The notes beneath the pieces were generated by a model. The model worked only from the letters and a program-made list of their open reading frames with translations, had not been told where the DNA came from and did not search any database. Below, in pieces: positions 13,864 to 35,358 of a stretch of DNA of 35,373 nucleotides; the first letter of the stretch is position 1, and every line of letters begins with the position of its first letter. Source of the stretch: a virus (Duplodnaviria; Caudoviricetes); IMG/VR virus record IMGVR_UViG_3300030330_000091, positions 1 to 35,373 of that record; one strand, given 5' to 3'. A program made the position numbers and the translations under genes.

Positions 13864-14664
13864 ATGAGTTTAGGAAAATTATTAAAAGATATTGCACCTG
13901 TTTTAATTGGAGCAACTTTAGGACCTGGCATAGGAGCACAATTTGGTGCTAGTCCTTTTATTAGCAGAGCTGTTACTGGAGCTTTAACATCAAAATTAGC
14001 TGGTGGCAGAAGTAAAGATGCACTAAGGAATGCCTTAATCGCAGGAGTTGGTGGTGCTGCTTTTGATCGTTTTACAGGTGCAGAACAAGCTGTGCCTCAA
14101 GGTGGACAGGGAACAATTGTTCGTAGTGGATCAGCTCAACCTCCTGCTGGTAACCCCGAAATTGCAAAAAGGATGGGTGTAAGTTCTGTGCCTACCGAGC
14201 AAGCATCACAAAAAATAGCAGAAGCGTTTAAACCTAAAACATTTAGTGCAGAGTTACTTAAATCTGCTGGAGTTGGTGGAGATAATTTGGTTGCAAGATT
14301 GTTAAACACACCACTTGGTGAAGGTTTGACAGCAGGTTTAATAGCACAACTACTGTCTGGTGATGATGAAGACAAGGACACAAGAACAGAGTTTGAAAGA
14401 AGACCTTTTGGCACTGGAGGACCTGGTGGCAGACTTGGTGGCATTACGTTTGCTAAAGAGGGTGGTGAGATGGGTTTTCCAAGACGAACAGGTGGCATAG
14501 ATCCATCTGAGGGTTCAGGCACAAAAGATGATGTTCCTGCAATGCTTATGGCTGGAGAGTTTGTCTTAACAAAAGATGCTGTAAAAGGATTAGGTGATGG
14601 CAATTCACGAAAGGGAATACAAAGAGCCTATAACATGATGGATCAATTGGAGGCTAGAGCGTAA
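13864..14664 (+). CDS. internal virion protein
   Basis: 266 aa Gly/Ala-rich; C-terminal GSGTKDDVPAMLMAGEFVLTKDAV domain. Confidence 0.6.
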   Translation: MSLGKLLKDIAPVLIGATLGPGIGAQFGASPFISRAVTGALTSKLAGGRSKDALRNALIAGVGGAAFDRFTGAEQAVPQGGQGTIVRSGSAQPPAGNPEIAKRMGVSSVPTEQASQKIAEAFKPKTFSAELLKSAGVGGDNLVARLLNTPLGEGLTAGLIAQLLSGDDEDKDTRTEFERRPFGTGGPGGRLGGITFAKEGGEMGFPRRTGGIDPSEGSGTKDDVPAMLMAGEFVLTKDAVKGLGDGNSRKGIQRAYNMMDQLEARA

Positions 14665-15587
14665 TGTCAACACAAACAGTCGAAAATATACAGAGATTAC
14701 CTCCATTTTTAGAGGGCTTACAGAAAAGATTATTGCAAACTGGTTTTGGTACGTTTGATGGAGAAACACAAACTACACCTGGTTTATTAGATTTTCGTTT
14801 AAATTTGCCAGGTTTTCAAATCGCAGGTATGGACCCACTTAGATCTCGTGCAATTTCACTAGGTGAGAATTTAGTTGGTTCTTTTAGACCTTTCGTTGAA
14901 GGTGCTGCTGGTCAAGCTCTTGCTGGGCAACAAGCTTTAACATCAGGATTACAATTTTTACAACCTGAAGCAATCGAAAGGTTTCAAAATCCATTTCAAC
15001 AACAAGTCATTGATGCCACTATGGATCAGCTTAATAGACAAGCTGATTTAAGAAGAGCTGCAGCTGATGCATCAGCAGTTAGATCTGGAGCTTTTGGTGG
15101 ATCTAGAGAGGGTATACAAAGAGCTGAAACTGAAAGAGGATTGCAACAAGTAAAAGGTGACACCTTATCAAGACTGCTGTCATCAGGTTTTCAATCAGCT
15201 TTACAAGCTGCACAGAATGCAGGAAGACTATCTGGTGGTCTAGGACAGGCTTTTGGCACATTAGCAGGGACAACGGGTGATTTAGGCAGACTACAACAAG
15301 CATTGGGTCAAGCAGATATATCTCAACTATCACAACTTGGTGCGTTAAGACAAGGACAACAACAAGCACAACTAGATGCACAACGTCAAAATTTGATGCA
15401 ACAAGCTCAAGAACCATTCACTAGATTGCAGTTAGGACAAAACTTACTACAAGGTATGCCAAGTGCTTCGATACCTTCTACGTTCCAACAAGCAACAACA
15501 CCTGGTGCAAATCCATTCTTGCAAGGTATTGGTGCTTATACTACATTGTCACAAATTGCACCTTTTGGTGGTACAAAATCTACATAG
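14664..15587 (+). CDS. DNA ejection / pilot protein
   Basis: 307 aa Gln/Gly/Ala-rich; NPFQQQVID and GAFGGSR motifs. Confidence 0.65.
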   Translation: MSTQTVENIQRLPPFLEGLQKRLLQTGFGTFDGETQTTPGLLDFRLNLPGFQIAGMDPLRSRAISLGENLVGSFRPFVEGAAGQALAGQQALTSGLQFLQPEAIERFQNPFQQQVIDATMDQLNRQADLRRAAADASAVRSGAFGGSREGIQRAETERGLQQVKGDTLSRLLSSGFQSALQAAQNAGRLSGGLGQAFGTLAGTTGDLGRLQQALGQADISQLSQLGALRQGQQQAQLDAQRQNLMQQAQEPFTRLQLGQNLLQGMPSASIPSTFQQATTPGANPFLQGIGAYTTLSQIAPFGGTKST

Positions 15588-15596
15588 GGTAGTTAT

Positions 15597-17435
15597 ATGG
15601 CAAAGACACCAACATTAACTTCTGGATTAACTGTAAGCTCACCTGGCGTTTCATCTACTCCTACAAGTCAAATGGGTTTGTTAGGTTCTTTGCTTGAGAA
15701 AATAGGAGTTAAACCTTTAGCTCAACAATTAGCAGAAGAACAAGCTCAAAAAGATAGAGCTATATTGAGTAAAGATTTAGATACACAAAAAGGACAGACT
15801 CAATTATCACAACTTGGATTAGGACCTGTTTCTTTTTCTGATGATGTACAAAATTTTATTAATCAAGATGCAATTAACAAACAAAGAATTGCAGAAAAAG
15901 AAAAAGAATTAGCATCTAAAAGTTTAAGCAATGTTGAAGGAGCATCTACTGTTGACTCTGCACAATTAGGTGATAAATCTGCTGGTATTGATCAAGATGT
16001 ATCTGGTTTAGGAGCTGATAAAAAAGCACAATTAGATGATCAGTTTGAAATAGCAGCAGGCTCTGATGCAGACATAGACTATAGTGATGTCGGTGAGCCT
16101 GGCTCAGAAGCTCCAGAGGAGAAAGCAACTCCCGAAACAACTTTAGCTAAAGAACAAAAAGCATTACAAGATTTATTTACTGAAACTATGTCAGAAACAG
16201 AAGAGTTATATAGTGATGAAATAACAAAAGCTCAACCTAAAAGTATTGAAGAATATAAAGCAGATTTTCAAAAGGCAACTGGTATAGATATATCGGGAGA
16301 ACCTGATAACAAATCAGCTCTTATGGCTCTTGGTTTAAAGCTAATGCAAAACAGAGCTGGTAAGGGCTTTGATTTATCAAAGATACTTACAGAAGTTGGT
16401 AGAGCAGGAGAAGAAACATTACCTGCTTTTGAAAGAGCAAAAGACAAAGCAAGAGCTGGTCAATTAGCCGCTGGTAAGTTTGCACTAGGACAGAAGATGG
16501 CTGATACAAAAGCATTAGCTGCTCTAAACAAAGAAAAGAGATTAGCTTTACTAGGTCTTGGCAAAGAGTTTAGAGGTAAAGCTGAAGCTAGAAGACTAGC
16601 AGCCGCCAAACACCTAAATGCTGTTGAATTAAAAGAATTAGAGTTTACTCAAAAAAGATTAGAAGCATTCCGTAAGGGACAAGCAAAACTATCTGAGATA
16701 ACAAAGAATCAAGGATTTGCACCTATTGATGGACAAACTCAATTAAAGGTATTTAAAGCTTTAAGAAAAGATGCAAGCGTGGGCAATCCTCTTGTTTATA
16801 CACAAGCACCTGATGATATTAGAAGATTTAAAGATTCTTATGGTAATATAACAAGAGCAAGAAATACGTTAAGTAGTATTGGAGGTTTGGTACAAGATTT
16901 AGGTTCTGAGACTGGATCTCCATTAGCAGATCAAGTCTTTGACAAAGTAAGAAATGTTGGTGTTGCTATTGGTCTTGATCCAAAACAATTGTTCGGTAAA
17001 TTGGTTACAGTTGGTAAAGATGGAAAAGCAGAACTTGTTGAAGGTGTATCAAGAGCTGATATGATACAAGTTTTAAATAGAACTTTAATAAATGAATATA
17101 AGAAGTTTTTAACACAAGAAACTGGTAATGGTATATCAAATCAAGACGTACAGAGACTTGAAGAAGCTTTAGGTAAAATAGATTTATTTACAAACCCACA
17201 ATTAGCATTACAAAGAATAAATGAAATCGATCAGATATTTGCTAAGACACAAGATCAAATTACAAATACACTCACTGGTTTTAAAGATAGGAATAGTTAT
17301 CTAACTGACGATCAGTTTGATAGGGCGCAGAAAGAACTTAGAGCAGGGACTGTGGAACAGTTTGGTAAGTCAGGACCTAAGTTTAACGTATCAACTGCTG
17401 ATGATGGAACAATAACTTATACTTTGGTTAAATAA
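15597..17435 (+). CDS. internal virion (ejection) protein
   Basis: 612 aa helical/coiled coil; position between pilot protein and large internal protein. Confidence 0.55.
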   Translation: MAKTPTLTSGLTVSSPGVSSTPTSQMGLLGSLLEKIGVKPLAQQLAEEQAQKDRAILSKDLDTQKGQTQLSQLGLGPVSFSDDVQNFINQDAINKQRIAEKEKELASKSLSNVEGASTVDSAQLGDKSAGIDQDVSGLGADKKAQLDDQFEIAAGSDADIDYSDVGEPGSEAPEEKATPETTLAKEQKALQDLFTETMSETEELYSDEITKAQPKSIEEYKADFQKATGIDISGEPDNKSALMALGLKLMQNRAGKGFDLSKILTEVGRAGEETLPAFERAKDKARAGQLAAGKFALGQKMADTKALAALNKEKRLALLGLGKEFRGKAEARRLAAAKHLNAVELKELEFTQKRLEAFRKGQAKLSEITKNQGFAPIDGQTQLKVFKALRKDASVGNPLVYTQAPDDIRRFKDSYGNITRARNTLSSIGGLVQDLGSETGSPLADQVFDKVRNVGVAIGLDPKQLFGKLVTVGKDGKAELVEGVSRADMIQVLNRTLINEYKKFLTQETGNGISNQDVQRLEEALGKIDLFTNPQLALQRINEIDQIFAKTQDQITNTLTGFKDRNSYLTDDQFDRAQKELRAGTVEQFGKSGPKFNVSTADDGTITYTLVK

Positions 17436-20400
17436 TGGCAAAGATAAAAATAAATTTACCTAATGAAAGCTTTAATTTTGAGATTGAAGGTAATGAGCCT
17501 ACCGAAGAAGAACAGGCTGCTATCAATCAAATAGTGCAACAGAAACTTGCTGAATCAAAAAAAGCTGAAGAAGTAGCAGCACAAACAACTGAACCATCAC
17601 CAGAAAAAAACAAACAATTGTTCGATGTCGAGACAGGAATTAAAAACAATGCACTGAGAGCCGCACTCGGAGTAGCTGAAACAAAAGAAGAAGAAGAGGC
17701 TATATTAAGAAAGTTTGATCTATCAGATGATGATTTTACAAGAGACAACAGAGGTAGATTAGCTCTAACTCCAACTGGAGCTTCAAAGTTTGGACAAGAG
17801 ACAGATAAAAACATACTCATAGATGAAGAGGGATTTAGTCGTTACGATTTCTCAGATTTATCTGGCATAGCACCAGAACTAATAACTGGTATAGGTGGAG
17901 CAATAGCAGGTCAACTGTTGATACCAATACCTGTTCTTGGTGCAGCCATTGGTGCTGGAGTAGGAGCTGGTAGTGGACAAGCTATTGAAGAAGGTGTTGA
18001 AGCTCTAGCTGGTGTATCAAAACAATCAGGAGAAGAGATAGCTAAAGACATAGGTAGAGAATTTGCTTACGGATTTGTAGGTGAGGGTTTGCTTGGTGGA
18101 GCAGTAGCTGCCTTTAGATTTGCAAGAAGAGGAGTAACACCTGGCAAAGGACTAACCTCTAAAGAAGCAACCACAGCAGGACAATCTATATCAGAGCCGA
18201 TTGATGAAGCTGGTAATATAATTAAGCCAAAAGATTTTGCAAAATTATCTGCTGATGAACAAATAGCTGCCACAAGTCGTGTTGTGACAAAGCCAGACGG
18301 AACAGTTGTTCGTGGTGGATTTGGTGTAAGACCAACTCTATCAGCAATAAAAGCACCATCACTCGTAGCTAGAATACAAGCGATTGGTGAAAAAATATTT
18401 AAAACATCTGATCGATTGAAAAACAACAATGATCAAATTAAAACATTACTTGATGCTTATAAACAAAAGTATGGTGTTACAGATGACGTTATTGATGCAG
18501 ATGTAGGACAAATACTCAAAGATGGCATGGTTGAAAATAATACTAAACTTTTAAATGTAGAAGAGCAGTTAACAGGTGCAGTTGTTAAACATTTAGAAGA
18601 TTCTGTAAATGCTTTTAAACAAGCTGGAGTTAGAAATTCAAATGTTGAGAGTGATTTATTTGAAATTATTAGAGACGCATCTATCAATTTTGATGAAATG
18701 ATTTCAGGTAAATTTGCTGCAGTTGATAAAGTGTTAAGAAATTCAAGTTTAGGTGGTGATGCTTTTATAACTACTGGTAGATTTAAAGACACAATTAAAA
18801 GACTTAAAAGAGACTATGGATCTTCAATAGCCGCTGGCACAAAGGACGGAAAAAGTATATCACAAATTATCGCAGCCGTTGAAAATGTTGGAGGAGCAGC
18901 GTTCAACAAAAAAGCCTCTTTCAATCAGATATACAATTTAAGAAAAACATTAAGTGATATAAGAATGGAATTACCACCTACTTCAAAAACAGTTCGTGGA
19001 GAACTTGTTACAAAAGATGGTGATGGATTACTTGATCAAGTTGACAAAATTTTTAAAGAAATGGGTGATGAAAATAGTGCAACATTTAGAGAAATAATAG
19101 CAAGAGAATCATTATCTCCTGCTGACGCTCAGAAATTTAAAAATGCTGGAAAAGCAATTAAAAAAGCACAAACAAAATTTTTCTTAGGACGAAAACTTAT
19201 TGAAGATTTAAATGCTTCAAAAACAATTAAAAATTTAGAAAAATATAAAAGACAGCCTGGCGACATTGTTGATGAAATACCACAAAATATTGATATTTAT
19301 GAGAATGTCGTAAAAAATAATAATCCTGAATTTATTCAACAAGCTAGAAAATTTATTACAGAATATGGTGGTGGAGCGCAATTGGCTGACGAATTTGTTG
19401 CACGAGCTGCTAATCATACTTTAGAGGAATCTCTTAAAAAATCTGGAATAAGTAATTTTACAAATGTTAAAAACTTTAATTCTGAAAAATTTGCACAATC
19501 AATTAAAAATTTAGGAACGACTGCTAAAGAATTGTTCGGAGCAGAAACAGATCAGATACTTAAATTAGCAGATGAAATAGGATCTGTTAAAATTACAGGT
19601 TTGGAATCTCCACAAGTTCTTAGACAGTTTAGAAACATTAAAGGTGACACAACATCTAATGCCACACTTGTTAGAAAGTTAGAAGCATTAGCCACCACAC
19701 AAAAAAGATTAGCCGCTAATCAAAAAAATGTAGTTCTTAGAAAGTTAGCTGATGATACTGGTGATTTAGATCCAGTTGAGGCAGCTCGTTTTCTTGTGCA
19801 AAAAACAACTAAAAACTCACAGATAAAGCCAGTAATAGAATATTTTGTGAAACAAGGTCAAAATGGCGAGCAAGCCTTAAACAAAATAAGAAGCTATTAC
19901 ATTAACAGTATTATAGATGATTTTGGTGAATCTATAATGACTGATGGAAAATCTCTAAATGCTTTTGCCGACAGACTACTAGCAGCTTCCAAAGACAATA
20001 AATTAGTTACAGTTTTTGGCAAAGAAGTCGGTAACAATATGAAAAAATTTGGTCAGATACTTAAATTTAATGCAAGAACTGCTGAAGGTGGTGATCTTGT
20101 TGCCGCTAATATAGCTGCTTCTCCATTCCAAAACGTAGGTAAACTTGTGAAGTTTAGTATTTTAGGTAACAGGCTTTTATCTAACGGATATTATGATGAC
20201 ATACTAAAACAATATAATGGTGTTGTTTTAGATCAATTTAAAAAACCTGCTGAGAGAGCAAGAGAAACAGGATCTATTATAGGTAAAGCTCTTAGCATTG
20301 GAATAGGACAAACAATGCAAGAAACTATTGATACGGCAGAGAGTCAAGCTCAATCATTTCTTGAGAGTCAAGGTTTAAATGTTAAGTTGCCAGACATAAA

Positions 20401-20605
20401 GGCTGAAGATTTAAAGACTGGCAATCTATCTACATTCTTACAACCAACTAGACCTAATGTACCTTTGAGTCAGTTAAAAATACCAGAACCAGTATCTGGT
20501 ACGACATTAGGAAACATAGATGTTACGAATCCAGCTAATGCTTTTTCATTAGGATTAAATCCTACTGACATTGCCATAGCACAGAGAAGAAGAGGTACAC
20601 AATGA
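17435..20605 (+). CDS. large internal virion (ejectosome) protein
   Basis: 1056 aa; Gly-rich hydrophobic segment near residues 145-225; helical; last structural gene. Confidence 0.6.
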   Translation: MAKIKINLPNESFNFEIEGNEPTEEEQAAINQIVQQKLAESKKAEEVAAQTTEPSPEKNKQLFDVETGIKNNALRAALGVAETKEEEEAILRKFDLSDDDFTRDNRGRLALTPTGASKFGQETDKNILIDEEGFSRYDFSDLSGIAPELITGIGGAIAGQLLIPIPVLGAAIGAGVGAGSGQAIEEGVEALAGVSKQSGEEIAKDIGREFAYGFVGEGLLGGAVAAFRFARRGVTPGKGLTSKEATTAGQSISEPIDEAGNIIKPKDFAKLSADEQIAATSRVVTKPDGTVVRGGFGVRPTLSAIKAPSLVARIQAIGEKIFKTSDRLKNNNDQIKTLLDAYKQKYGVTDDVIDADVGQILKDGMVENNTKLLNVEEQLTGAVVKHLEDSVNAFKQAGVRNSNVESDLFEIIRDASINFDEMISGKFAAVDKVLRNSSLGGDAFITTGRFKDTIKRLKRDYGSSIAAGTKDGKSISQIIAAVENVGGAAFNKKASFNQIYNLRKTLSDIRMELPPTSKTVRGELVTKDGDGLLDQVDKIFKEMGDENSATFREIIARESLSPADAQKFKNAGKAIKKAQTKFFLGRKLIEDLNASKTIKNLEKYKRQPGDIVDEIPQNIDIYENVVKNNNPEFIQQARKFITEYGGGAQLADEFVARAANHTLEESLKKSGISNFTNVKNFNSEKFAQSIKNLGTTAKELFGAETDQILKLADEIGSVKITGLESPQVLRQFRNIKGDTTSNATLVRKLEALATTQKRLAANQKNVVLRKLADDTGDLDPVEAARFLVQKTTKNSQIKPVIEYFVKQGQNGEQALNKIRSYYINSIIDDFGESIMTDGKSLNAFADRLLAASKDNKLVTVFGKEVGNNMKKFGQILKFNARTAEGGDLVAANIAASPFQNVGKLVKFSILGNRLLSNGYYDDILKQYNGVVLDQFKKPAERARETGSIIGKALSIGIGQTMQETIDTAESQAQSFLESQGLNVKLPDIKAEDLKTGNLSTFLQPTRPNVPLSQLKIPEPVSGTTLGNIDVTNPANAFSLGLNPTDIAIAQRRRGTQ

Positions 20606-21051
20606 ACATAGAACAATTAAGAGAAACTCTCAAAATTGACGAGGGAAATGTGAAATCCGTGTACCTTGATCATTTAAATCTGGCTACAGTGGGCATAGGA
20701 CATTTGATTACTGAATGGGATGAAGAGTATGGTAAGCCAGTTGGCACACCAGTATCAGAAGAGCGAGTAAACGAATTATTTGACAAAGACATCCAGATTA
20801 CGATTGACGAGTGCGAACAATTATTCGGTAACTTTCAAGATTTGCCAGAAGAAGTACAGCAAATTCTGGCGAACATGATGTTTAATCTCGGCAGACCTCG
20901 TCTATCCAAATTCAGGAAGCTATGTAAAGCTGTGGCTGAAAGAAACTGGAAAGAATGTGCAATTCAAATGGAAGACTCGAAATGGCACAAGCAAGTAACC
21001 AAACGCGCTGATCGTCTAATCTCTCGTATGAATGCTGTTGATAGCACCTAA
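20602..21051 (+). CDS. endolysin, T4-like lysozyme (GH24)
   Basis: DEG...YLDHLNLATVGIGHL with E-D-T catalytic pattern; NMMFNLG and SKWHKQV..RA motifs. Confidence 0.9.
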   Translation: MNIEQLRETLKIDEGNVKSVYLDHLNLATVGIGHLITEWDEEYGKPVGTPVSEERVNELFDKDIQITIDECEQLFGNFQDLPEEVQQILANMMFNLGRPRLSKFRKLCKAVAERNWKECAIQMEDSKWHKQVTKRADRLISRMNAVDST

Positions 21052-21228
21052 TCCTAAACTGGTAACTTTACTTTTGTATTTACTATATTCTTCTTTATCA
21101 AACTCTTGATCAATCATTAAACTTAATTGTTGTCTAATGTATCGTCTTTGATGCTCACATATCTTAATTAATTTATCATAACTTTTACGATCTAAGCCAA
21201 CAGACTTGAATTTTGAAATATCTGTCAT
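21016..21228 (-). CDS. small DNA-binding regulator (ribbon-helix-helix-like)
   Basis: Only convincing minus-strand gene; GGAGGT RBS at 21240-21235; 70 aa MTDISKFKSVGLDRKSYDKLIKIC...IRQQLSLMID with strand-helix-helix pattern. Confidence 0.6.
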   Translation of the reverse strand: MTDISKFKSVGLDRKSYDKLIKICEHQRRYIRQQLSLMIDQEFDKEEYSKYKSKVTSLGLGAINSIHTRD

Positions 21229-21234: not shown

Positions 21235-21240
21235 ACCTCC

Positions 21241-24139: not shown

Positions 24140-25818
24140 TTCTTAGACCATATCAAGAAATAGCAGTACAAGATGCTTCTAATGCTTTGGACAAGCATAA
24201 GAATACTATTGTTGTTGCACCAACGGGAGCAGGTAAAACAATTATGCTATCTGCATTGATTGGCAAACGATACCAAAAAGGTAAAAAGATTTTAGTTCTA
24301 CAACATCGGGATGAACTTGTAGGACAGAACAAAAACAAATTTTCTCGTGTTAATCCAAAAATATCTACATCTATCGTAGATGCTTCAGAAAAAAATTGGG
24401 ATGGTAGCACAGTATTTAGTATGGTGCAGACACTATCGAGACCGAACAATTTGGCTAATATGTCTAAAGTAGACATGATGGTGATAGACGAAAGTCACCA
24501 TGCCATAGCCGATACATACATGAGAATTATCAACAAGGTTAAAGAAGCTAATGAATCTGTAGAGATTGTTGGCTTTACTGCAACACCTAATCGTGGAGAC
24601 AGAAAAGGTTTAAAAGGTGTGTTCAATAATTGCTCACATCAGATCGAAATAGCTAACCTTATACGAGAGGGTTTTCTTGTGCCACCAAAAACATTCGTGA
24701 TTGATGTCGGGGTACAAAAAGATTTACAAAATGTTCGTAAAACTGTGTCAGATTTTGACATGGGACAAGTCGAGCAGATTATGAACAAACGTGCTATCAA
24801 CGAGAAGATTGTTGAGGAGTGGCAGGAGAAAGCAGGAAACAGAAAGACAGTTATATTTTGTAGCACAGTGGTTCATGCACAAGATCTATGTGATGAGTTT
24901 AGAAGATCGGAGATTCGTGCAGAGATTGTGACAGGTGAGACACCATCGGAAGAAAGAAAAAAAATACTACATGATCTGGAACATGGTGACGTACAAGTCG
25001 TGGTTAATGTTGCAGTATTGACAGAGGGTTTTGATGCACCACCTGTCAGTTGTATTGTGCTTACAAGACCATGCTCATACAAGTCTACAATGGTGCAGAT
25101 GATTGGTCGTGGACTACGAACAATAGATCCTGAAGAACATCCAAACGTAATCAAGAAAGATTGTATTGTATTAGATTTCGGTACGAGTGTATTGACACAT
25201 GGATCTTTGGATGAGGGTGTTGATCTTGATGGCAAAGATAAGATGCAACAAGGATCAGCTCCTGAGAAAGTATGTCCTAATTGTAAATGTCTTATACCAT
25301 TAAGTGTTCGTGTATGTCCTATGTGTGGACATGAGATTGAGATGCAAGCAAAAGAATTGCTTGAGACATTTGACATGACAGAGGTAGATCTTATCGACAG
25401 ATCACCATTTAGATGGATTGATTTGTTTAACAATGGCAGATGTATGTCAGCCAGTGGATTTAATGGTTTTGGTTTAGTTGCGCATTTAGATGACGTTTCT
25501 GTAGCCTTAGTTAAACGTACAAGGGGTAAACTTAGAGTTGTGGGTGTAGGCACTAAAGAACAAGCTTTGGCTTCTGCTGACGATTTTTTGAGGGAAATAG
25601 AAGATAGTGACGGAGCTAAGAAAGGTAAGAGATGGCTAAACCAAGCTATGACAGACAGACAAAGAGAAGCTTTAGCAAGAGAGAACAAGATTGTAAGTCA
25701 GTTGGATCTTAGTTTTAGCAAGTACAAAGCGGCGTGTTGGTTAAATTATTTGTGGAATAAGAAAGAAATTGATGGCAGAGTTTTAGATTATTACGAAGGA
25801 GATGAGAATGCAGCGTAG
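24136..25818 (+). CDS. SF2 DEAD/DEAH-box helicase with C-terminal Zn ribbon
   Basis: LRPYQ, APTGAGKT, DESHH, TATP, LTEGFD, QMIGRGLR; CPNC...CPMC. Confidence 0.92.
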   Translation: MILRPYQEIAVQDASNALDKHKNTIVVAPTGAGKTIMLSALIGKRYQKGKKILVLQHRDELVGQNKNKFSRVNPKISTSIVDASEKNWDGSTVFSMVQTLSRPNNLANMSKVDMMVIDESHHAIADTYMRIINKVKEANESVEIVGFTATPNRGDRKGLKGVFNNCSHQIEIANLIREGFLVPPKTFVIDVGVQKDLQNVRKTVSDFDMGQVEQIMNKRAINEKIVEEWQEKAGNRKTVIFCSTVVHAQDLCDEFRRSEIRAEIVTGETPSEERKKILHDLEHGDVQVVVNVAVLTEGFDAPPVSCIVLTRPCSYKSTMVQMIGRGLRTIDPEEHPNVIKKDCIVLDFGTSVLTHGSLDEGVDLDGKDKMQQGSAPEKVCPNCKCLIPLSVRVCPMCGHEIEMQAKELLETFDMTEVDLIDRSPFRWIDLFNNGRCMSASGFNGFGLVAHLDDVSVALVKRTRGKLRVVGVGTKEQALASADDFLREIEDSDGAKKGKRWLNQAMTDRQREALARENKIVSQLDLSFSKYKAACWLNYLWNKKEIDGRVLDYYEGDENAA

Positions 25819-26089
25819 TGAAGCTTTACAAAAAGCCGAACAATTAATCAACGGAGCTAGGGCTAGAACACACGGAGATGCAAAAGATACACATGAATCA
25901 ATAGCTAAGATTATGAACGTATTGTGGAGACACAAACTTAAAGCAGAACTTACTTATGATGACATATATAAATTTTGTATAGTGCAAAAGCTTGTTCGAG
26001 ACTCTCAGAACCCAAAGAATATGGACAATCCAATAGATGTAATAGGATACGGAGCTTTGTGGGCAGAGGGTAAAAGTGGCAAAAATTAA
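25808..26089 (+). CDS. DUF6378-like protein
   Basis: ATG 25808 with AAGGAG; RARTHGDA...KLVR...DNPIDVIGYGAL. Confidence 0.7.
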   Translation: MQRSEALQKAEQLINGARARTHGDAKDTHESIAKIMNVLWRHKLKAELTYDDIYKFCIVQKLVRDSQNPKNMDNPIDVIGYGALWAEGKSGKN

Positions 26090-26369: not shown

Positions 26370-26545
26370 AGATATTGTCCGAACAATTTGCAAAGATAGG
26401 CTGGGATAAAAAGTTACAGAATTTGACACAGGACGAAGCACTTGCCATAATTGATGCCATCAATTCAGCTAGTGGAGTCAATAGTGGCGTTCTCGACCTT
26501 AATCCAAACACAGACATATTCGATGAAGACGAGATCCCATTTTAA
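26330..26545 (+). CDS. small acidic protein (DUF6511-like)
   Basis: 71 aa, AAGGAG RBS; IGWDKKL and C-terminal DEDEIPF (SSB-tail-like). Confidence 0.6.
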   Translation: MEQHGNGDRHNTLKILSEQFAKIGWDKKLQNLTQDEALAIIDAINSASGVNSGVLDLNPNTDIFDEDEIPF

Positions 26546-26546
26546 A

Positions 26547-27254
26547 ATGCTAGAACAAAACATATCAGATATAATAGATAAATCTATTGTTGATCGGAAC
26601 AAAGAGGTCAAGAAAAGAACTTACATTGGTGCTTCTAGTCTCGGTGACTCATGCTCTCGTAAAATACAATATCGTTACATGGGTCAGCCTATTGATGATA
26701 ATCGGGATTTTGATGCCAAAACACTTCGTATATTTCAGTTTGGACACGAGATAGAATTTAGTGTAGCTGGGTGGCTTAGACAAGCTGGATTTGATTTACG
26801 AGTGCAGGACAAAAATGGCGAACAATTTGGTTTTAGCATAGCAGAAGGTGAAGTTAAGGGTCACATAGATGGTGTGATATGTAACGGACCTTTGGATACC
26901 GAATATCCTATGTTATGGGAATGCAAGTCAGCTAACGAAAGAAAATTTAAGGAATTTCAAATTAAGGGTGTGGCAATAGCTAACCCTGTGTATGCAGCAC
27001 AGGTTGCTTTGTATCAAGCTTATATGAAATTAACAGATAATCCTTGTCTGTTTACAGTATTAAACAAAAATACAAGTGAGATATATTATGAGTTTATACC
27101 TTTTAACAAAGCTTTGGCACAAGAGGTAAGTGACAAAGCAGTGATGATATTAGAAGCCACAAAAGCAAATGAGATGTTGCCAAGGATTGCACAGTCTCGT
27201 GATTACTTTGCTTGTAAGTTTTGTGAGTTTCAAGATAGTTGTTGGAGTGTTTAA
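26547..27254 (+). CDS. Cas4-like / PD-(D/E)XK exonuclease
   Basis: ATG 26547; YIGASSLG..C.R, GHIDG, WECKS, Y.AQ...Y and CKFC...C (four-Cys Fe-S pattern). Confidence 0.8.
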   Translation: MLEQNISDIIDKSIVDRNKEVKKRTYIGASSLGDSCSRKIQYRYMGQPIDDNRDFDAKTLRIFQFGHEIEFSVAGWLRQAGFDLRVQDKNGEQFGFSIAEGEVKGHIDGVICNGPLDTEYPMLWECKSANERKFKEFQIKGVAIANPVYAAQVALYQAYMKLTDNPCLFTVLNKNTSEIYYEFIPFNKALAQEVSDKAVMILEATKANEMLPRIAQSRDYFACKFCEFQDSCWSV

Positions 27255-27314: not shown

Positions 27315-29489
27315 ATGAACATTATAAAACTTGGCAATAAGAATAGGGATATGTCAGCCAATGAATTAGTCGATATGATTAGTCAGAAAGTCCCAGCCAG
27401 TGTGCAAATCGATGAACTAAAAAATACATTTCCACATGGAATTGTTCGGGGTGATGTGTTTACAATCGGGTCATTAGATGGAGAAGCTGGTAAATCATTA
27501 AAGATAGATATTAATCCCAGATCACCATATTTTATGAAGGGATCAGATTTCAACGGATCACAGGGCATCGGGGGTATTGTTAAGATATTAATGGAAGGAA
27601 GAGGTATGCGCCTTCCTGAAATCAAAGAATTGTTCGGAAACTATCTGGATGATAATACTCCTCCACCAGTTGATCAGGACATACCACAAGAGCTTGGCAT
27701 TACATTTAAAAGAGCTATTGATATTAATACACCATACGACTCCGAACATTTATACCTGTCTGGTGATGGTGAAATCCTGTGTCGTGTTAGAAGATACAAC
27801 ATAAAAGACAATGCTGGTAATCCAGTTATGGATAGTCATGGCAAGCCCAAGAAAGAATTTAGACAATTTACAGATTCACCATATCCAAGAATACCTGATG
27901 TAAGACCATTGTATAACATACCTAACATTGTGGCTTCTGAGAAAGTCATATGGGTTGAAGGAGAGAAATGTGCTGATGCTTTAAATGAGATTGGTTACAC
28001 TGCTACCTGTACTATGGGAGGTGCAGGAATGTTATCTCGTAAATCAGCCAGTCGTTTTGATTTTAGCCCATTACGAGATAAAGAACTAATCATATGGGGA
28101 GACAATGACAATGCAGGTCGTAAGGTAGCTGAACTGGTTCAGGAACTGGCATTGAATGCAGGAGCTAGATCGGTAACTACATTGACTCCTCCCAGAGGTA
28201 AGCCAGAGGGTTGGGATGCAGTTGATGCCATATCGGAGAGCTTTGATGTACAACATTTCTTAAACACAACAGTTAAGCATACTAAACGTAACATTAATTT
28301 ACTGGATGATAGTTTACTGGTTAGCAGATTTGAAGGCAATGCACCCGAACAAAAGTTCTTAGTCGATGGCACGTTTCCGTTGGGTGTACCAATTATATTT
28401 TCTGCAGCAGGAGACGCTGGTAAGGGTATGATGACACTGGATTTAGCAATGAAAGTAGCATCGGGTCAGCCTTTAGCAGAGAGTTTTGGTAGCACTATAG
28501 GTGAATTTGGCAATGTTGTGATCTTTACAGCAGAGGATGATGAGTCAGAAATGCACAGGAGAATTGAGCGTTTAGATCCGAACAATTTGAGATTTTCGTA
28601 CAGGCATGAGCTTCGTGTAGTCTCACTGCCTAACGTGGGAGGTGTCTTTCCAATACTTCAGGACACAAGAGATGGTTATAGCACCAGTGATGAGTTTAAT
28701 AAACTTTACGAACAAATCTTGCAAATGAATGATTTAAAGTTGATTATCTTTGATCCTTTGGCTTCTTTTGTTCATGCAGATGTAAATGCAGATCCAGCAG
28801 CAGGAGCTGCCTTGACTGGTTTACTGGCACAGATCGGGACAGAAACTGGAGCTTCTGTGGTCATGTGTCATCATATGACTAAAGTTAAAGATGATACAAT
28901 CATTAATACTCCTGAACAAGCAAGATTGCTTATTCGTGGCACTTCAGCACTTGTTGATGGTGTTAGATGTGCTTTTGCACTTTGGCAAGTTGATGAAGCT
29001 ACTGGTCGTAGACGTTGTATGGATATAGGCACAGATTATGAAAGAAACAGATGCTTTGATGGAGCAGTTGTAAAAAGTAATGGACCTGCTAACAGAAACA
29101 TTAGACATTTCGTTAGAAATAGTTACTCTGGATTATTAGAAGACAAGACAGAGGAGATCAAACGATTACACTCTGGCACAAACAGAGAGATTAAGAAAGA
29201 TGCTCTGTTTGCTTGGATTGCAACCTGTGAGAGGGAGGGCAGGGCTTTGACACAACAGTCAGGAGCAGATGCAATAGGACAAAGATTAGCATCGGATCAC
29301 GATGCACCACAAGTATTGCAGAATTTAACACAAAGAAGTATTGACGGAATTGTTCGGGAACTTATAAGAGAATCACGAATCGGGAAATACTCATTCACAG
29401 CATCGGGTGGTCGTAAATGGCTTGGGACAACAGATGGAGTTATGTCTCAGGGTGAATACGAAGCCACAACAGCAACGGATAATGTCTAA
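27315..29489 (+). CDS. primase-helicase (Toprim + AAA_25/RepA-like)
   Basis: WVEGEKCADAL, GDNDNAG and GWDAVD Toprim motifs; AAGDAGKG Walker A, IFDP, HHMTK, RGTSALVD. Confidence 0.88.
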   Translation: MNIIKLGNKNRDMSANELVDMISQKVPASVQIDELKNTFPHGIVRGDVFTIGSLDGEAGKSLKIDINPRSPYFMKGSDFNGSQGIGGIVKILMEGRGMRLPEIKELFGNYLDDNTPPPVDQDIPQELGITFKRAIDINTPYDSEHLYLSGDGEILCRVRRYNIKDNAGNPVMDSHGKPKKEFRQFTDSPYPRIPDVRPLYNIPNIVASEKVIWVEGEKCADALNEIGYTATCTMGGAGMLSRKSASRFDFSPLRDKELIIWGDNDNAGRKVAELVQELALNAGARSVTTLTPPRGKPEGWDAVDAISESFDVQHFLNTTVKHTKRNINLLDDSLLVSRFEGNAPEQKFLVDGTFPLGVPIIFSAAGDAGKGMMTLDLAMKVASGQPLAESFGSTIGEFGNVVIFTAEDDESEMHRRIERLDPNNLRFSYRHELRVVSLPNVGGVFPILQDTRDGYSTSDEFNKLYEQILQMNDLKLIIFDPLASFVHADVNADPAAGAALTGLLAQIGTETGASVVMCHHMTKVKDDTIINTPEQARLLIRGTSALVDGVRCAFALWQVDEATGRRRCMDIGTDYERNRCFDGAVVKSNGPANRNIRHFVRNSYSGLLEDKTEEIKRLHSGTNREIKKDALFAWIATCEREGRALTQQSGADAIGQRLASDHDAPQVLQNLTQRSIDGIVRELIRESRIGKYSFTASGGRKWLGTTDGVMSQGEYEATTATDNV

Positions 29490-29691
29490 GAAGGGCAGAT
29501 ATTCTAAACAATCAAGAGACTACAACGCCCTCCGTGCCTACACAAAAAAGATATTAAAACAAAAAACTGTGCCAGATGAGTCCGAACAATTATTCGAAGA
29601 CGATCCCAGAGCTGCCGAAGAAATTGAATATGGTAGGGTCATAAAAAAATCTACATATGTATTTTCAAAAAATATTTTAAGTGATTTATAA
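29482..29691 (+). CDS. hypothetical protein
   Basis: ATG 29482 overlapping the primase end; FEDDPRA motif; 69 aa. Confidence 0.5.
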   Translation: MSKKGRYSKQSRDYNALRAYTKKILKQKTVPDESEQLFEDDPRAAEEIEYGRVIKKSTYVFSKNILSDL

Positions 29692-29710
29692 AAAAAATTT
29701 ATATTTATAC

Positions 29711-29777
29711 TTGACTATCATGTAATGAATACTATATACAACTATTATGAACTATCATAATAGGAGCAAGTAGATGA
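29711..29777 (+). promoter_or_regulatory. promoter/RBS cassette copy 1
   Basis: TTGACTAT...AACTATCAT..ATAGGAGCAAGTAGATGA after an AT-rich tract. Confidence 0.6.
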
Positions 29778-30028
29778 AGTTTAAAATTATATGGAACAAA
29801 AAGGATCAGCCAACTCTTGAGGAAGCTCAAGAGTTTGTTGGTGGTTGGGTTGAGTGTGTACGTTTGAGTAACGGAGATACTTTGCTTATTGATGAAGAGG
29901 GTAAGCTTAAAGGTAAGGAAGTTAATCAAACTGCTACTATGCACTTTGTAGCTAGTTATGGCATGACAGACGTTATTGCAGGAGATGCCATGTTGATTGC
30001 AAAAGGAGCAAATACAAAATGGAAATAA
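29774..30028 (+). CDS. DUF3846-like protein
   Basis: LEEAQEFVGGWVE...IDEEGKL...NQTAT...IAGDA. Confidence 0.75.
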   Translation: MKFKIIWNKKDQPTLEEAQEFVGGWVECVRLSNGDTLLIDEEGKLKGKEVNQTATMHFVASYGMTDVIAGDAMLIAKGANTKWK

Positions 30029-30282
30029 AAAATTACAAATGTAAAAGACCTAAACAAGGTTACAACACAGAAAAAGAAAGACAATTAGCAAAATGGTCTG
30101 ACGTTTCTGATTGGGAAGTGTTTTATCAAGGTAAAAAGATTGGTTGCATTTATTATGTTGGTACACAATTAGTTTCATGGGGTTGGCATTTAGATAAACC
30201 TGATTGTAAAGGGGAAGCTTTTACAAAAAAAGAAGCTTTGTGGGATTTAGCTTTAACTTATGAAAAAGAGAGGGTTAGCTGA
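30019..30282 (+). CDS. hypothetical protein
   Basis: 87 aa, AGGAG RBS, Trp-rich. Confidence 0.6.
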   Translation: MEIKNYKCKRPKQGYNTEKERQLAKWSDVSDWEVFYQGKKIGCIYYVGTQLVSWGWHLDKPDCKGEAFTKKEALWDLALTYEKERVS

Positions 30283-31505
30283 TGGAAGTTAATGATAAGC
30301 CATTGATGGCAAGTGAAATCATTGGTGCTTTGGGTCAGCCTAAGAGAGCCATTGCACATTTTAAAAGTGGATCTATTGCAGAGGGTAAGGCTAGAGAAAC
30401 TCAGTCTATGCTTGTTAATGCACAGAAGTTTAAGGTCTCTAACAAGCTTATAGATCATGCAGGAGAGGCATCTATGTCTAAGCCTCATGTATTGCTTGAG
30501 ATGATTAAAACTGCAATACCACCATTTAAAAATATGTTTATAGAATGGGATGAGCATTATCGTGTTCATCTTTTGAAAAATCTTTATCATAAATATTTGC
30601 CACAGTATGTAGGCAAGATAGAAGAGCCTAAAGATTATTTAGATCGTATCGGTTATCATATATATGAGTATGAACATCCAAGTGGGGATAGTTGGTATAT
30701 GTATGATATGTGGTGCATGATTGATGGTAAGTGGTTTTGTTCTCCATTATCTTCCGTTGTTCGTAACGAAGAAGAATGGAATATGAATATTGCCTTTTCT
30801 AATTACGTTATGAAAGAGCAGGCATCAAGAGAACTTCCTACTGATACTCGAAACTTTATGATGGATTCAGAAGTGTTTATAAAAGAGGTTGCCCATCAAA
30901 GTATTAAGATCATTGGACATCCATATTCTTTGGCACATTTTAATGACAGTGATAAGTTGTTTAGGGCAAAGTCATTAGATCATAATCGTGATGAATATAA
31001 GTTAATGCTCGATATTTATTCTAGGTTTACTACTGTGCAAAGTAGAGCCATGCATTGGCTTATTCCAAAGCAAAAATTCAAGCAAGGTTGGGATAATGAT
31101 GAGATGGCAGAACTTTCTAAAACTCACTTGCAATTAATTCAAGGTGGTGACGTTAGGTTTATCATTAGTGTGCTTTCTATCCTTAATTACGATTTAATCG
31201 TCAAGGAGACACAGAAACCTGCTGATCATAAGGTAAAGCACGTTAGGTTTGGAAGAAGTGTCCCTACGAATGAATATAGCCTTTTAAATATAGAGTTGCC
31301 TAAACCTAGAGGTAAGACTGTTTATGAAAAGATATTTACAGGTCAAGGCACTCCGAAGAAGTGGCATATGAGACGTGGGCATTGGAGACGTTATCGTGAT
31401 AAGCATGGCAATATAACCAAAAGAATTTGGATTGATCAATGTGAAGCAGGTAGCAAAGAGCATGGTCAAAAGATTAAAGATTATAATTTACAAAAAAGTA
31501 GTTGA
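30282..31505 (+). CDS. hypothetical phage protein with C-terminal HxRRGHWR motif
   Basis: 407 aa; PPFKNMFIEW near the N-terminus and WHMRRGHWRRY...RIWI at the C-terminus. Confidence 0.7.
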   Translation: MEVNDKPLMASEIIGALGQPKRAIAHFKSGSIAEGKARETQSMLVNAQKFKVSNKLIDHAGEASMSKPHVLLEMIKTAIPPFKNMFIEWDEHYRVHLLKNLYHKYLPQYVGKIEEPKDYLDRIGYHIYEYEHPSGDSWYMYDMWCMIDGKWFCSPLSSVVRNEEEWNMNIAFSNYVMKEQASRELPTDTRNFMMDSEVFIKEVAHQSIKIIGHPYSLAHFNDSDKLFRAKSLDHNRDEYKLMLDIYSRFTTVQSRAMHWLIPKQKFKQGWDNDEMAELSKTHLQLIQGGDVRFIISVLSILNYDLIVKETQKPADHKVKHVRFGRSVPTNEYSLLNIELPKPRGKTVYEKIFTGQGTPKKWHMRRGHWRRYRDKHGNITKRIWIDQCEAGSKEHGQKIKDYNLQKSS

Positions 31506-31569
31506 CTATGCAATCAATACAATGTAACAATATCAATAACTATCATTTTTTATAGGAGCAAGTAGATGA
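31502..31569 (+). promoter_or_regulatory. promoter/RBS cassette copy 2
   Basis: TTGACTAT...AACTATCAT...ATAGGAGCAAGTAGATGA, same layout as 29711. Confidence 0.6.
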
Positions 31570-32785: not shown

Positions 32786-34084
32786 ATGATTGATATTAAG
32801 ATCGGGGATTGTAGAGAAAAGCTGAAGGAATTACCGAACAATTTCTTTCATACAGTTATTACTTCACCACCTTACTGGGGTTTACGAGACTATGGTACTG
32901 GCAAATGGATCGGAGGAGATCCAAATTGTTCGCATATTGCTGGTAAATCCCGTAATGATGCTGATCGGGAGTTTGGTACAAAAGAGACACTAACTGTGCA
33001 ATATCGTGACGTTTGCAAGGATTGTGGTGCAGTTAGGGAAGATAATCAGATTGGTATGGAAGCCAGTCCTGAAGAGTATGTCCGTAAAATTGTTCGTACT
33101 TTTCAGGAAGTCAAACGGGTGTTGCGTGATGATGGAACTCTTTGGTTAAACCTAGGGGATAGCTATTCTAGTGGTGGCAGGACATCTACAACTAATCAAA
33201 CTGTTAGAGGAGATAAGGATTACGGGGTCACTAGACCTCCCGTATCGGGCAGTATAAAGCCTAAAGACCTTGTAGGGATACCTTGGAGGGTGGCACTGGC
33301 ACTTCAGGAGGATGGATGGTATCTCAGGCAGGATATTATATGGCACAAACCTAATCCTATGCCTGAAAGTGTGAAGGATAGATGCACGAAGGCACATGAG
33401 TATATATTCTTGTTATCCAAGTCAGAGCAATACTTTTTTGATAGTCATGCAATAAAAGAAGATGCAACTGGTTTTGATGGTCGTAAACAAACTAAACATT
33501 TAGGAAGTAAAAAGTATGATCCTGATACGTTTCCTGCACATCAGGGACACGAAAAATGGAACTATGATGAAAGTGGTAATCCAATAAGAAACAAAAGAAG
33601 TGTGTGGACTGTACCAGTTAAGCCCTACAATGAAGCCCATTTTGCAGTATTTCCAACTACTTTAATAGAACCAGCGATTCTTGCTGGTTGCCCTCCGAAG
33701 ATTTGTTCGGAGTGTGGGACTCCATATGAACGGGACATGGTTACAGTCGAAGTGCCTGAACGGGAAACTAGGGACAATATGGTCGGTGTTATACCAAAAA
33801 GAGATAAAACCAGCCGTATGAATAGCAAAGATATGAAGTCACTGGTACAGGAAGACAGGGGGTTTACAAAGAATTGTTCGTGTTCAGGAAGCCAGATATC
33901 TGCTGGTCGGGTACTTGATCCATTCGGTGGGTCAGGTACGACTGCACTGGTAGCTGATCGACATGGCAGAGATGCTACCATTATCGAACTTAATCAGAAG
34001 TATGTGGATATAGCTGAAAACAGGCTAGGTTCAGATGCACCTTTATTTACAGAACTTAGGAGGGAGGTTGTAAATGAAAGCTAA
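32786..34084 (+). CDS. DNA methyltransferase (N4-C/N6-A, beta class)
   Basis: IGDC, TSPPYWGLRDY, IWHKPNPMPES, HFAVFP, VLDPFGGSGTT; two Cys-rich inserts. Confidence 0.93.
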   Translation: MIDIKIGDCREKLKELPNNFFHTVITSPPYWGLRDYGTGKWIGGDPNCSHIAGKSRNDADREFGTKETLTVQYRDVCKDCGAVREDNQIGMEASPEEYVRKIVRTFQEVKRVLRDDGTLWLNLGDSYSSGGRTSTTNQTVRGDKDYGVTRPPVSGSIKPKDLVGIPWRVALALQEDGWYLRQDIIWHKPNPMPESVKDRCTKAHEYIFLLSKSEQYFFDSHAIKEDATGFDGRKQTKHLGSKKYDPDTFPAHQGHEKWNYDESGNPIRNKRSVWTVPVKPYNEAHFAVFPTTLIEPAILAGCPPKICSECGTPYERDMVTVEVPERETRDNMVGVIPKRDKTSRMNSKDMKSLVQEDRGFTKNCSCSGSQISAGRVLDPFGGSGTTALVADRHGRDATIIELNQKYVDIAENRLGSDAPLFTELRREVVNES

Positions 34085-34415
34085 AGCAAAGACCTGTTGC
34101 AACTGCAACGAAGAAATTGTTCGGGGTATGGCATTCCCGTTAATGGAAAAAAGCATATGTATGAGTTGCTTTGTTCACTTTGGACTGGCACAAAAAATGG
34201 ACATTAGTATGCTACATTATCAAAATTGTTCGGAGGAACACTGTTTTGACTGTGAATATGCCTTCATAAAAGCACTATGGGCATTGGACTATAAACAGAC
34301 ACAAATGGGCAACTGGTACAGGAGGACTCCAGACCCGAAAATTGTTCGGATTTATGATGATTTACTTACCAACATACCAACTTACTCGGTAAGTAGATTA
34401 GAGGGTAAGTTGTAA
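34074..34415 (+). CDS. Cys-rich hypothetical protein
   Basis: 113 aa, GGAGG RBS; CCNC, CMSC, C...CFDC. Confidence 0.55.
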   Translation: MKAKAKTCCNCNEEIVRGMAFPLMEKSICMSCFVHFGLAQKMDISMLHYQNCSEEHCFDCEYAFIKALWALDYKQTQMGNWYRRTPDPKIVRIYDDLLTNIPTYSVSRLEGKL

Positions 34416-34585
34416 GTTGTTGATTTTACTAGATAAAATTATGTTACTTACATTGGTTACCAAAGGGCTTGGTAAGTATTTTATGCCCTGTAAGTCATTG
34501 ATTTTATTGAAACTTACCAACTTACCGAACTTCCCCCCCTATAGGGGGTATAGGGGGAGGGTAAGTAACCACCACCCCCTATCCC
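34364..34585. repeat. iteron/palindrome-rich region, putative origin or packaging-related site
   Basis: 11 ACTTAC/GTAAGT hexamers; 20-nt direct repeat at 34411 and 34489; palindrome CCCCCTATAGGGGG at 34535-48. Confidence 0.7.
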
Positions 34586-34615
34586 AAATAACGTAACGAC
34601 AAGGAGTAAAAGCTG

Positions 34616-35128
34616 ATGCCAAAAGTAGGCGAAAATTTACCACAAGAACAAAGATCAAAAGGGCTTAAAAGATTAACCCAGAAACAACAAGCTTTTCTGG
34701 ATAACTTCATGCACAAGGATATGACACAGACTAACGCAGCTCGACAAGCTGGTTACAGTAATCCGTCAGTAGATGCAGTTAGGTTGCTCCGTAACGAAGT
34801 CGTGCAAGAACGATTTCAAGAGATGCAGGAGGAAAACAGAAGTCGGTTTGGTGTAACGATAGACAAGTCTGTAAGGGACTTGCTGAAGATCCGTAACGAG
34901 GCTTGGGAATCGGGAAAGTTTGGTGAAGCTATTCGGGCTGAAGAACTCCGTTTAAAGGCTACTGGATTGCTCGTAAACAAGGCTCATGTACTACATGAGA
35001 AAGTCGATAGCATGACGAAGGAAGAAATACTGGCTGAACTCCAGAATCTGCAACAAAAAGCACAGGATCGTATGAAAAAAGCCAACGTCACCCATATACA
35101 CCCAAAGAAGATAGGCAAAAATAGTTAA
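34616..35128 (+). CDS. terS: terminase small subunit
   Basis: AAGGAG RBS; LTQKQQAF...TQTNAARQAGYS HTH followed by helical region and ATGL. Confidence 0.8.
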   Translation: MPKVGENLPQEQRSKGLKRLTQKQQAFLDNFMHKDMTQTNAARQAGYSNPSVDAVRLLRNEVVQERFQEMQEENRSRFGVTIDKSVRDLLKIRNEAWESGKFGEAIRAEELRLKATGLLVNKAHVLHEKVDSMTKEEILAELQNLQQKAQDRMKKANVTHIHPKKIGKNS

Positions 35129-35208
35129 ATATGGGTATAATTGGGAATGCACTTGCCGTGGTCTGGCACAGGGACACCGAACAATTTCTATGAACGGGAC
35201 TGGACAGC

Positions 35209-35358
35209 ATCGGGATTGGGATCGGGATGCGTATAATTGTTCGGAGTCGTGCTGCTAATCGGGCTGGATCGGGGGTGGATCGGGCTTCCATCGGGCTACT
35301 ATTTGGCTTCCAGCAACGGGTTCGGATTTTGGTTCGGATCGGGTCAGGGTGAATCGGG
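35209..35358 (+). repeat. GC-rich ATCGGG repeat cluster
   Basis: ATCGGG at 35209, 35221, 35258, 35268, 35279, 35290, 35338 and 35353. Confidence 0.75.

Follow-up and report, generated by a model that had tools for sequence, protein, structure and literature searches.

Why should a virus write the same short word over and over into unrelated genes, and crowd it towards one end of its genome? We asked this of a stretch of 35,373 nucleotides, IMG/VR record IMGVR_UViG_3300030330_000091 (hereafter the window), which is a 61%-complete record of a marine podovirus whose fuller relatives measure 53-58 kb. The word is the 9-mer AATTGTTCG, which an earlier note on this DNA had reported as over-represented and densest towards terS, the gene for the terminase small subunit. 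The analysis presented here describes a real, strongly selected, family-wide dyad code, and a specific candidate for its reader that is encoded beyond the window end.

A dyad repeated through coding DNA

On recount, the window contains 23 exact copies of AATTGTTCG (14 on the plus strand and nine on the minus strand), each at the position first reported; the first copy starts at 14115, leaving the first 14 kb empty as described before, and the nine copies counted in the last 2.6 kb were found again. At a window guanine-cytosine (GC) content of 36.8%, 0.44 copies are expected under a zero-order and 0.33 under a third-order Markov model, close to the 0.5 previously estimated from composition, and AATTGTTCG is the most enriched 9-mer of the window. 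Two copies are intergenic and 21 coding. All window genes run on the plus strand and the sites fall on both strands, occupying five of the six strand and frame combinations, in agreement with the earlier view that the word sits within unrelated genes in both orientations. The positions are non-uniform (Kolmogorov-Smirnov p=3e-5). Enrichment survived the codon-preserving shuffle that had been proposed as a check: with genome-wide synonymous shuffling that preserves the next base (n=400) the mean was 0.82 and the maximum 4 copies, against 21 coding copies observed, and with shuffling within genes (n=500) the mean was 3.4 and the maximum 7, including the two fixed intergenic copies. One-mismatch 9-mers number 17 in all, with 0-3 per variant, and this scarcity means that the word is sharply defined; the "many near matches" noted before exist for the shorter core TTGTTCG (33 in the window versus 6.7 expected) but not for the 9-mer. 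The window is depleted about twofold in CpG (observed/expected 0.48) though the motif contains CpG, and CpG is not depleted in higher-GC relatives (0.9-1.0).

The word covers the centre and a single arm of a longer unit, a 14-bp dyad whose commonest full form is CGAACAATTGTTCG. The dyad is 13/14 complete at 14110, 20814 and 29583, where a near-complete palindrome had already been seen, and also at 17611. The second arm is also preserved in part: across the 23 window sites it averages 1.87 of 5 matches where 1.18 would be expected (p=0.0009). The perfect 14-mer is absent from this incomplete fragment. The motif is likewise enriched in related phages, as the earlier note had wished to see examined: CGAA-N6-TTCG ranks first among dyads in each of the seven long records that bear the motif, and is missing from the leading dyads of records G006-G008, of HTVC023P (50 of 61 kb) or of DSL-LC04 (50 of 62 kb). 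It is retained in records of 37-47% GC and at TerS identities down to about 50%, and one lineage (G004, G005, G010 and G325) uses a relaxed dialect in which the AATT centre is loosened and CT is favoured after the core. In related records the distances between dyads in the non-coding block that follows terS tend to fall close to multiples of 10.5, with a resultant of 0.37-0.40 over 152 spacings and of 0.56 over 35 hand-picked spacings from six records, a selection that excludes G005 and gaps shorter than 38; given the relatedness of the records, this is suggestive only of helical phasing.

To follow the sites through evolution we compared the window with G001-G003, which carry 35-45 copies each and whose helicase is 92-97% identical to that of the window. 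Third positions were identical at 123 of 127 places inside sites versus 64-67% elsewhere, so that copies are indeed held at synonymous positions, as the earlier note had suspected. The more distant G318 and G324 each have five sites in common with the window, and six and eight others. When the places where the encoded protein is compatible with a site are taken from left to right, the filled share is 0/6 (first 13.8 kb), 5/9, 9/12 and 7/7; every chance is therefore used near terS and none far away. The terS open reading frame (ORF) contains no copy, and both this absence and the gap at 29.7-32.8 kb arise because no compatible codons exist there; the reported densification towards terS thus holds as a gradient with a peak beside the gene, but not for the gene itself. 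In the pooled profile of ten long relatives, counted as TTGTTCG per 2 kb, the density is 0.5 at -24 kb and has grown to 3-4 by -4 kb; a maximum of 12.5 is reached immediately downstream of terS, after which the values are 3.1 and then 0.4 by +4 kb, and a minor secondary rise is seen close to the scaffold and capsid genes. In the fuller relatives sites are densest in the non-coding block that follows terS, and upstream of early promoters. These data show that the dyad is kept by selection in genes and spacers and is graded around the block after terS. The earlier proposal of a dispersed, selected protein-binding code in coding DNA is supported by the dyad, by synonymous conservation and by the gradient of filled compatible places.

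The early ligase module

The array accompanies a gene for a ligase of the Amidoligase_2 family. All 38 terS-terL intervals with this gene hold 7-21 TTGTTCG and all nine without it hold 0-1, in a set of rows that includes near-copies and in which four of the negatives are distant phages; in the 5 kb after terS, 45 ligase-plus rows have 6-23 sites and 12 ligase-minus rows 0-2. Starting from the ligase alone gave the same picture: the 51 loci with at least 1 kb upstream all carry at least two TGTTCG (29 of the 80 ligase-picked loci were too short for a motif count), and TGTTCG occurs 573 times versus 53 for the reversed control. Only two families are present in 37/37 motif-bearing early regions and in 0/7 negatives, namely the ligase and an ORF of 80-86 amino acids, of no known fold, that always lies behind the ligase gene (L192 11052-11312; hereafter the 80-residue ORF). 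A gamma-glutamyl cyclotransferase gene is found in 15 of 18 motif-bearing records. In a quick TerS tree, the ligase-less L512 and L480/L482 fall inside a 100-supported clade of 17 rows, 14 of them ligase-plus, and their TerS helix is nearly identical to that of the carriers. The motif follows the two-gene early module, not TerS. The earlier candidate readers fared accordingly: TerS is not supported, given the ligase-less phages, which have nearly the same TerS helix and no array, and the regulator encoded at 21016-21228, which is 38-49% identical across carriers, gained no support.

The ligase matched the Pfam Amidoligase_2 profile with 26.6-68.9 bits (cut-off 22) in four of four full-length proteins, and no solved structure matched the ligase profile by sequence. 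In a predicted model with a predicted local distance difference test (pLDDT) score of 91, the ligase part resembles YbdK, glutamate-cysteine ligase, glutamine synthetase, PafA and Dop (Z 9-11) and residues 271-352 resemble winged helices, BirA among the matches (Z 6.5-7.4), which predicts a glutamine-synthetase fold with a winged helix inserted at residues 271-352. The ExE, HxH and ExR residues are invariant in 39/39 members. The winged helix is DUF3489-like in 27 of the 39 and is the best-conserved part of the protein (0.52 versus 0.41 for the ligase domain), with the recognition-helix arginines R309 and R316 present in 97% and 92%; no LexA domain (PF01726) was found among the 39 winged helices, and the freely readable literature gives no function for DUF3489. 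Matches in cultured phages cover the ligase part only (residues 1-249 of 357), and the winged helix had no match in 50,697 cultured-phage records. Between lineages the ligase is 24-36% identical. Stand-alone copies of the winged helix lie directly before the ligase gene in higher-GC lineages (L486 4530-4650, L477 11419-11575, and G323). For the 80-residue protein, the model (pLDDT 81, best Z 3.9) allowed no fold to be assigned, and the Atlas returned unnamed clusters only, as it did for the primase C-terminus.

The DNA flank of the core also varies with the ligase. Among phages with an identical TerS helix, AAT precedes TGTTCG at a frequency of 0.12 with the ligase helix ...RRTINT and of 0.67-0.74 with ...MFSE, ...MISE or ...RRTIST. 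The winged helix of the phage's own early amidoligase, as modelled, is probably the reader of the dyad.

Sites, hub and neighbouring genes

The sites are distributed over the window as follows (strand in brackets). ORF 13864-14664 contains a 13/14 dyad at 14110-14123 (+) that is kept in G001-G003, and ORF 15597-17435 a site at 16987-16995 (+). ORF 17435-20605, judged by its position a probable DNA transfer protein, has a 13/14 dyad at 17611-17624 (+) and a site at 19530-19538 (+), followed by a 13/14 dyad at 20814-20827 (-) in the lysozyme gene (20602-21051). Single minus-strand sites lie in the helicase gene (24443-24451, kept in G001-G003, G318 and G324), a DUF6378 ORF (25837-25845), a DUF6511 ORF (26380-26388) and the gene for a Cas4-like exonuclease (26819-26827, exact in 7 of 11 relatives). 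The primase-helicase gene carries four, at 27440-27448 (+), 27628-27636 (+), 28579-28587 (-) and 29348-29356 (+), and ORF 29482-29691 a 13/14 dyad at 29583-29596 (-). Four more, at 32835 (-), 32924 (+), 33088 (+) and 33872 (+), thus spanning 32835-33880, are located in an accessory N6/N4 methyltransferase gene (32786-34084), and each of its ten full-length orthologues, down to 84% nucleotide identity, also has four. Accessory C5 and N6/N4 methyltransferase genes near terS in G004 (34122-35996 and 38563-39867) contain six and nine TGTTCG, and the small genes next to them none. A cysteine-rich ORF (34074-34415) holds three plus-strand sites, at 34115, 34224 and 34340 (34115-34348), all kept in G001-G003.

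Around terS the sites meet other signals, and four motifs can be distinguished at this hub: repeats before terS, TCGGG repeats after it, a dyad in promoter spacers, and the present dyad. Upstream of terS (34616-35128, +; Terminase_2), ten GTAAG/CTTAC repeats surround a C-run/TATA/G-run hairpin at 34381-34600, a candidate replication origin. The hairpin is conserved just upstream of terS amid repeats that are lineage-specific (ACGTTAA in G316, ACGTCAA in L480), and the repeats may be origin iterons. In P4-type iteron systems a primase-helicase is the reader; this protein was rejected as reader of the present dyad, being encoded in the motif-less L480 and L557, while the separate repeats before terS change between lineages. 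Downstream, a GC-rich non-coding block starts at 35129-35373 (+) with sites at 35178 (-) and 35235 (+) and eight same-strand TCGGG repeats, and continues in relatives into early-gene cassettes and the ligase gene. The TCGGG repeats (TCGGA in G004) survive without the dyad in L512, L480, L482, L557 and G006, and are a better candidate than the dyad for a TerS/pac box.

In relatives that extend past terS, this block holds 4-8 sites and is followed by cassettes in the order terminator, site, A-tract, sigma-70-type promoter and ribosome-binding site. The early promoters carry a spacer dyad of their own, GTAATnATTAC (L192 6090-8780; G002 28354-30650), which is of GGCA/GGTA type in G004, G005 and G010 and TATGGGA/TCCCATA in G316. 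It changes with an XRE protein whose gene closes the early region (L192 11284-11700), and is probably a second operator that fits this protein. The XRE protein was rejected as reader of the present dyad, as it occurs in 24 of the 37 motif-bearing early regions and has no match in G316, G319, G321 or G322. A polar signal of the Chi type was dismissed in view of the two orientations found on one side. Back-to-back divergent sigma-70-type promoters are also present in the early region (L192 7470-7545; G002 29100-29165), the leftward one facing a stretch without a long ORF and perhaps giving a small RNA. Between the early region and terL lies a fast-evolving ORF of 670-1070 residues with a proline-rich start (L192 11730-13946; G002 32820-34904) that had no Pfam or PHROG match.

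The remaining window genes are those of a podovirus, with structural genes and genes for lysozyme, Sak4, the helicase, the Cas4-like nuclease, a Toprim/AAA_25 primase-helicase, the methyltransferase and TerS. After the capsid region, window positions 981-3096 contain short, very basic ORFs (DUF6321, DUF5872 and others) that are highly conserved in relatives. The spacer after the major capsid gene has a perfect dyad in many relatives (G002 45531-45544), and positions 13-21 of the window hold a one-mismatch form of it. A close relative has a capsid that shares 67-70% identity with those of HTVC023P, HTVC027P and DSL-LC04; TerS had no cultured-phage match. The family is represented by many marine virome records (89 helicase stretches, and 150 and 492 terS stretches), and no cultured member was found. 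The lysozyme and ejection genes probably indicate a Gram-negative host. Capsid matches in GTDB were discarded as a host clue, as the 31 loci lie in metagenome-assembled genomes of unrelated taxa and were read as mis-binned phage contigs. For comparison with a DNA uptake sequence, a word over-represented in its host chromosome, 301 genomes of one class, which may not be that of the host, were searched for the exact 14-mer; it occurs once in each of eight genomes and never twice. The 20 runs consulted for genome ends all held assembled contigs, and the four examined gave no end signal. At the start of a 466-kb contig titled Pseudomonas sp. (L281) we found a capsid relative (60%) with a repeated dyad of its own, AAAGTT-N6-AACTTT, possibly an integrated member of a wider group.

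A docking explanation and its rivals

We propose that the dyad docks the early amidoligase through its predicted winged helix and gathers the enzyme at the hub formed by the candidate origin, terS and the early promoters, an explanation that we hold about as readily as we doubt it. Binding would involve a dimer of the protein, with one of the two half-sites strong and the other weak. If the winged helix is the reader, a tethering role is likely: sites in genes would serve as an antenna whose benefit declines with distance from the hub, and since sites become denser towards the 3' end of the replication operon, such an antenna fits better than a transcription roadblock. Once bound, the enzyme would create gamma-glutamyl amide bonds on a substrate at the phage DNA, for which a DNA-bound protein is the most likely candidate, and the linked gamma-glutamyl cyclotransferase would reverse them; retention of the catalytic residues together with the frequent cyclotransferase suggests that reversible gamma-glutamyl bonds are what the bound enzyme would most likely write. 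It is tempting to speculate on a DNA-addressed writer and eraser, in which gamma-glutamyl tags are placed on DNA-associated proteins, the cyclotransferase removes them and the 80-residue partner is carrier or target, and we offer this extension tentatively, as possible rather than likely.

Several observations weigh against docking by the ligase. The relevant passages of PMC5498523 and PMC11318856 propose that phage amidoligases act in cell-wall modification, a role that needs no DNA. The window itself has no ligase gene; in L191, which matches the final 758 bases of the window with 99.9% identity, the start of such a gene lies about 3 kb past the window end. As the gene lies within the region of the densest array, one regional replacement would remove both, and linkage could mimic cause. 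At most two losses can be counted as independent, one of which is seen in fragmentary records (G326, 51% complete, and G327, 29% complete), and the ligase-less G326 keeps four AATTGTTCG versus 0.4 expected, without an array or a full dyad, these copies being either decayed remnants or signs of a reader elsewhere. The 80-residue ORF co-occurs with the motif as perfectly as the ligase does. The Z values of the winged helix are in the range of a common arrangement. The match of dialect to ligase helix is confounded with lineage, and one change on the TerS tree also explains the relaxed dialect; moreover G009, with a helix ending ...RTVNT, is fairly strict (0.48-0.62). Finally, coding enrichment is weaker in higher-GC relatives, G316 having only six TTGTTCG in the 30 kb upstream.

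In the main rival explanation, the same reader would instead be a transcription regulator gated by its ligase site, for which BirA, a ligase-repressor, is the model; it would sense ATP or glutamate and tune the early promoters, its own included, with the coding sites as sink or roadblocks. Such a regulator would account for the position of the dyad 60-87 bases upstream of the -35 box in 12 of the 16 plus-strand early promoters of motif-bearing records, for a half-site within 190 bases of the start in 84 of 139 distinct ligase upstream regions, and for the stand-alone winged helices that precede the ligase in some lineages. We nevertheless consider it unlikely, since most sites lie outside promoters, the promoter spacers hold another operator that changes with the XRE protein, the site at the ligase's own promoter varies in position between lineages, and density climbs towards the 3' end of the middle operon; nor did five near-complete relatives contain a tyrosine integrase (PF00589), in a search that did not extend to serine recombinases or plasmid-type lysogeny. 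A host protein of the LexA type might also bind the dyad, so that the phage titrates it or couples itself to the SOS response, with the 80-residue ORF as a possible cofactor, a role reportedly played for LexA by gp7 of phage GIL01. Motif-bearing records contain 3-9 copies each of the form GAAC-N4-GTTC, where G006-G008 have 0-1, and a host reader would explain a core that stays constant despite such divergent ligases. This remains improbable: the spacer is mostly AATT, and the B. subtilis consensus, which may not be that of the host, is matched 0-1 times per record; a Gram-negative host is suggested by the lysozyme and ejection genes, and the alphaproteobacterial form GTTC-N7-GTTC appears only 0-3 times; persistence of the motif from 37% to 47% GC suggests several hosts; and the flanks of the sites vary with the phage ligase helix.

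A further possibility is that the dyad is a packaging signal recognized by TerS, the sites ahead of pac forming a graded antenna. This would suit the density peak right after terS, a helix that is well conserved among carriers, and block spacings near multiples of 10.5 (in records that are not independent). The dyad does adjoin terS, as a pac signal should, but it is not inherited with the TerS recognition helix: L512, L480 and L482 keep a near-identical helix and, after terS, 12-14 TCGGG repeats on one strand, yet have 0-1 dyad sites. The nearest solved TerS, that of SF6, binds with little local sequence specificity according to PMC4737164, and we regard this explanation as quite improbable. 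We give very little credence to a reader in the 80-residue ORF behind the ligase, or in another linked factor that acts in DNA entry. The ORF shares the ligase's distribution (37/37 motif-bearing early regions and 0/7 negatives), and with terminal redundancy the dense side could enter first; however, its mean column identity is 39%, only M1 and A45 are invariant, it has no conserved basic helix, and the assembled contigs gave no mapped genome-end signal for an entry factor. That the word is a target of the phage's methyltransferase, or results from biased codon or peptide use, might have been suspected from the four copies in the methyltransferase gene and the twofold depletion of CpG, but is largely refuted, as G001-G003 have no match to that gene and yet carry their full complement of copies, and codon-preserving nulls reach at most 4-7 copies.

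Docking by the ligase can also be set against systems already described. In matS/MatP and parS/ParB, a palindrome recurs within coding DNA and is concentrated in a single domain of the chromosome, and ParB joins a nucleotide-using domain to a helix-turn-helix. The present dyad has a palindrome in coding DNA and one domain in common with these, but differs in sequence, in its candidate reader, a glutamine-synthetase-fold ligase, and in residing in a 55-kb phage genome; neither MatP nor ParB was found among the 48 window proteins, the relatives not having been searched for these families. BirA also has a winged helix joined to a ligase and reads a dyad as a dimer, although it has one operator and another ligase fold where here there are dozens of sites. 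The Gram-positive LexA box, with which the earlier note had compared the palindrome, shares the general form GAAC-N4-GTTC, and to that extent the likeness stands. It does not extend to the fixed AATT centre, the one weak arm, the location mostly in genes or a host that is probably Gram-negative. The B. subtilis spacer rule RNRY, which may not be the host's, is matched 0-1 times per record, with AATT the commonest spacer; five near-complete relatives contain no LexA domain (PF01726); and in place of the promoter overlap typical of LexA, overlap is seen only at the ligase promoter of some lineages.

Stoperators of cluster A mycobacteriophages such as L5 and TipsytheTRex resemble the present system in more than 20 genome-wide sites, one phage protein and some sites at promoters, as far as the relevant text of PMC9283540 describes them. 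According to the same text (PMC9283540), however, they are asymmetric, intergenic 13-mers oriented with transcription and bound by the monomeric repressor of a temperate phage; here the site is a dyad, almost always coding, in both orientations and graded around one hub, and the candidate reader is an enzyme, so that the dyad is not a stoperator. The closest phages of known type, the HTVC023P-type podoviruses, share the order terS, small early region and terL, besides the capsid similarity, but are defined by a PolA gene in the portions of PMC9599517 seen, where the window's family has Sak4, the helicase, the Cas4-like nuclease and the Toprim/AAA_25 primase-helicase; HTVC023P lacks the motif in the 50 kb read. 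Phages such as phiEco32 and PSA-HP1 encode the same enzyme family (PF12224) with the same cyclotransferase partner, in the relevant passages of PMC5498523 and PMC11318856. We found no description of the motif or of the ligase/winged-helix fusion in the literature, subscription papers and supplements being outside our scope.

Phage amidoligases are common. The passages of PMC5498523 and PMC11318856 that treat them report no tested function, and modification of the cell wall is the standing guess (PMC5498523, PMC11318856); the cultured-phage matches lack the winged helix. Here an amidoligase is fused to a predicted DNA-binding domain and comes with a defined candidate site, a 14-mer under selection strong enough to keep synonymous codons fixed over 20 kb. 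Should the protein be only a regulator, a ligase that regulates and has dozens of sites within genes would still be unusual. If the enzyme is active at the places where it is bound, a virus would have a novel means of controlling or shielding its genome, and if it marks proteins on its own genome, that would come close to being categorically new.

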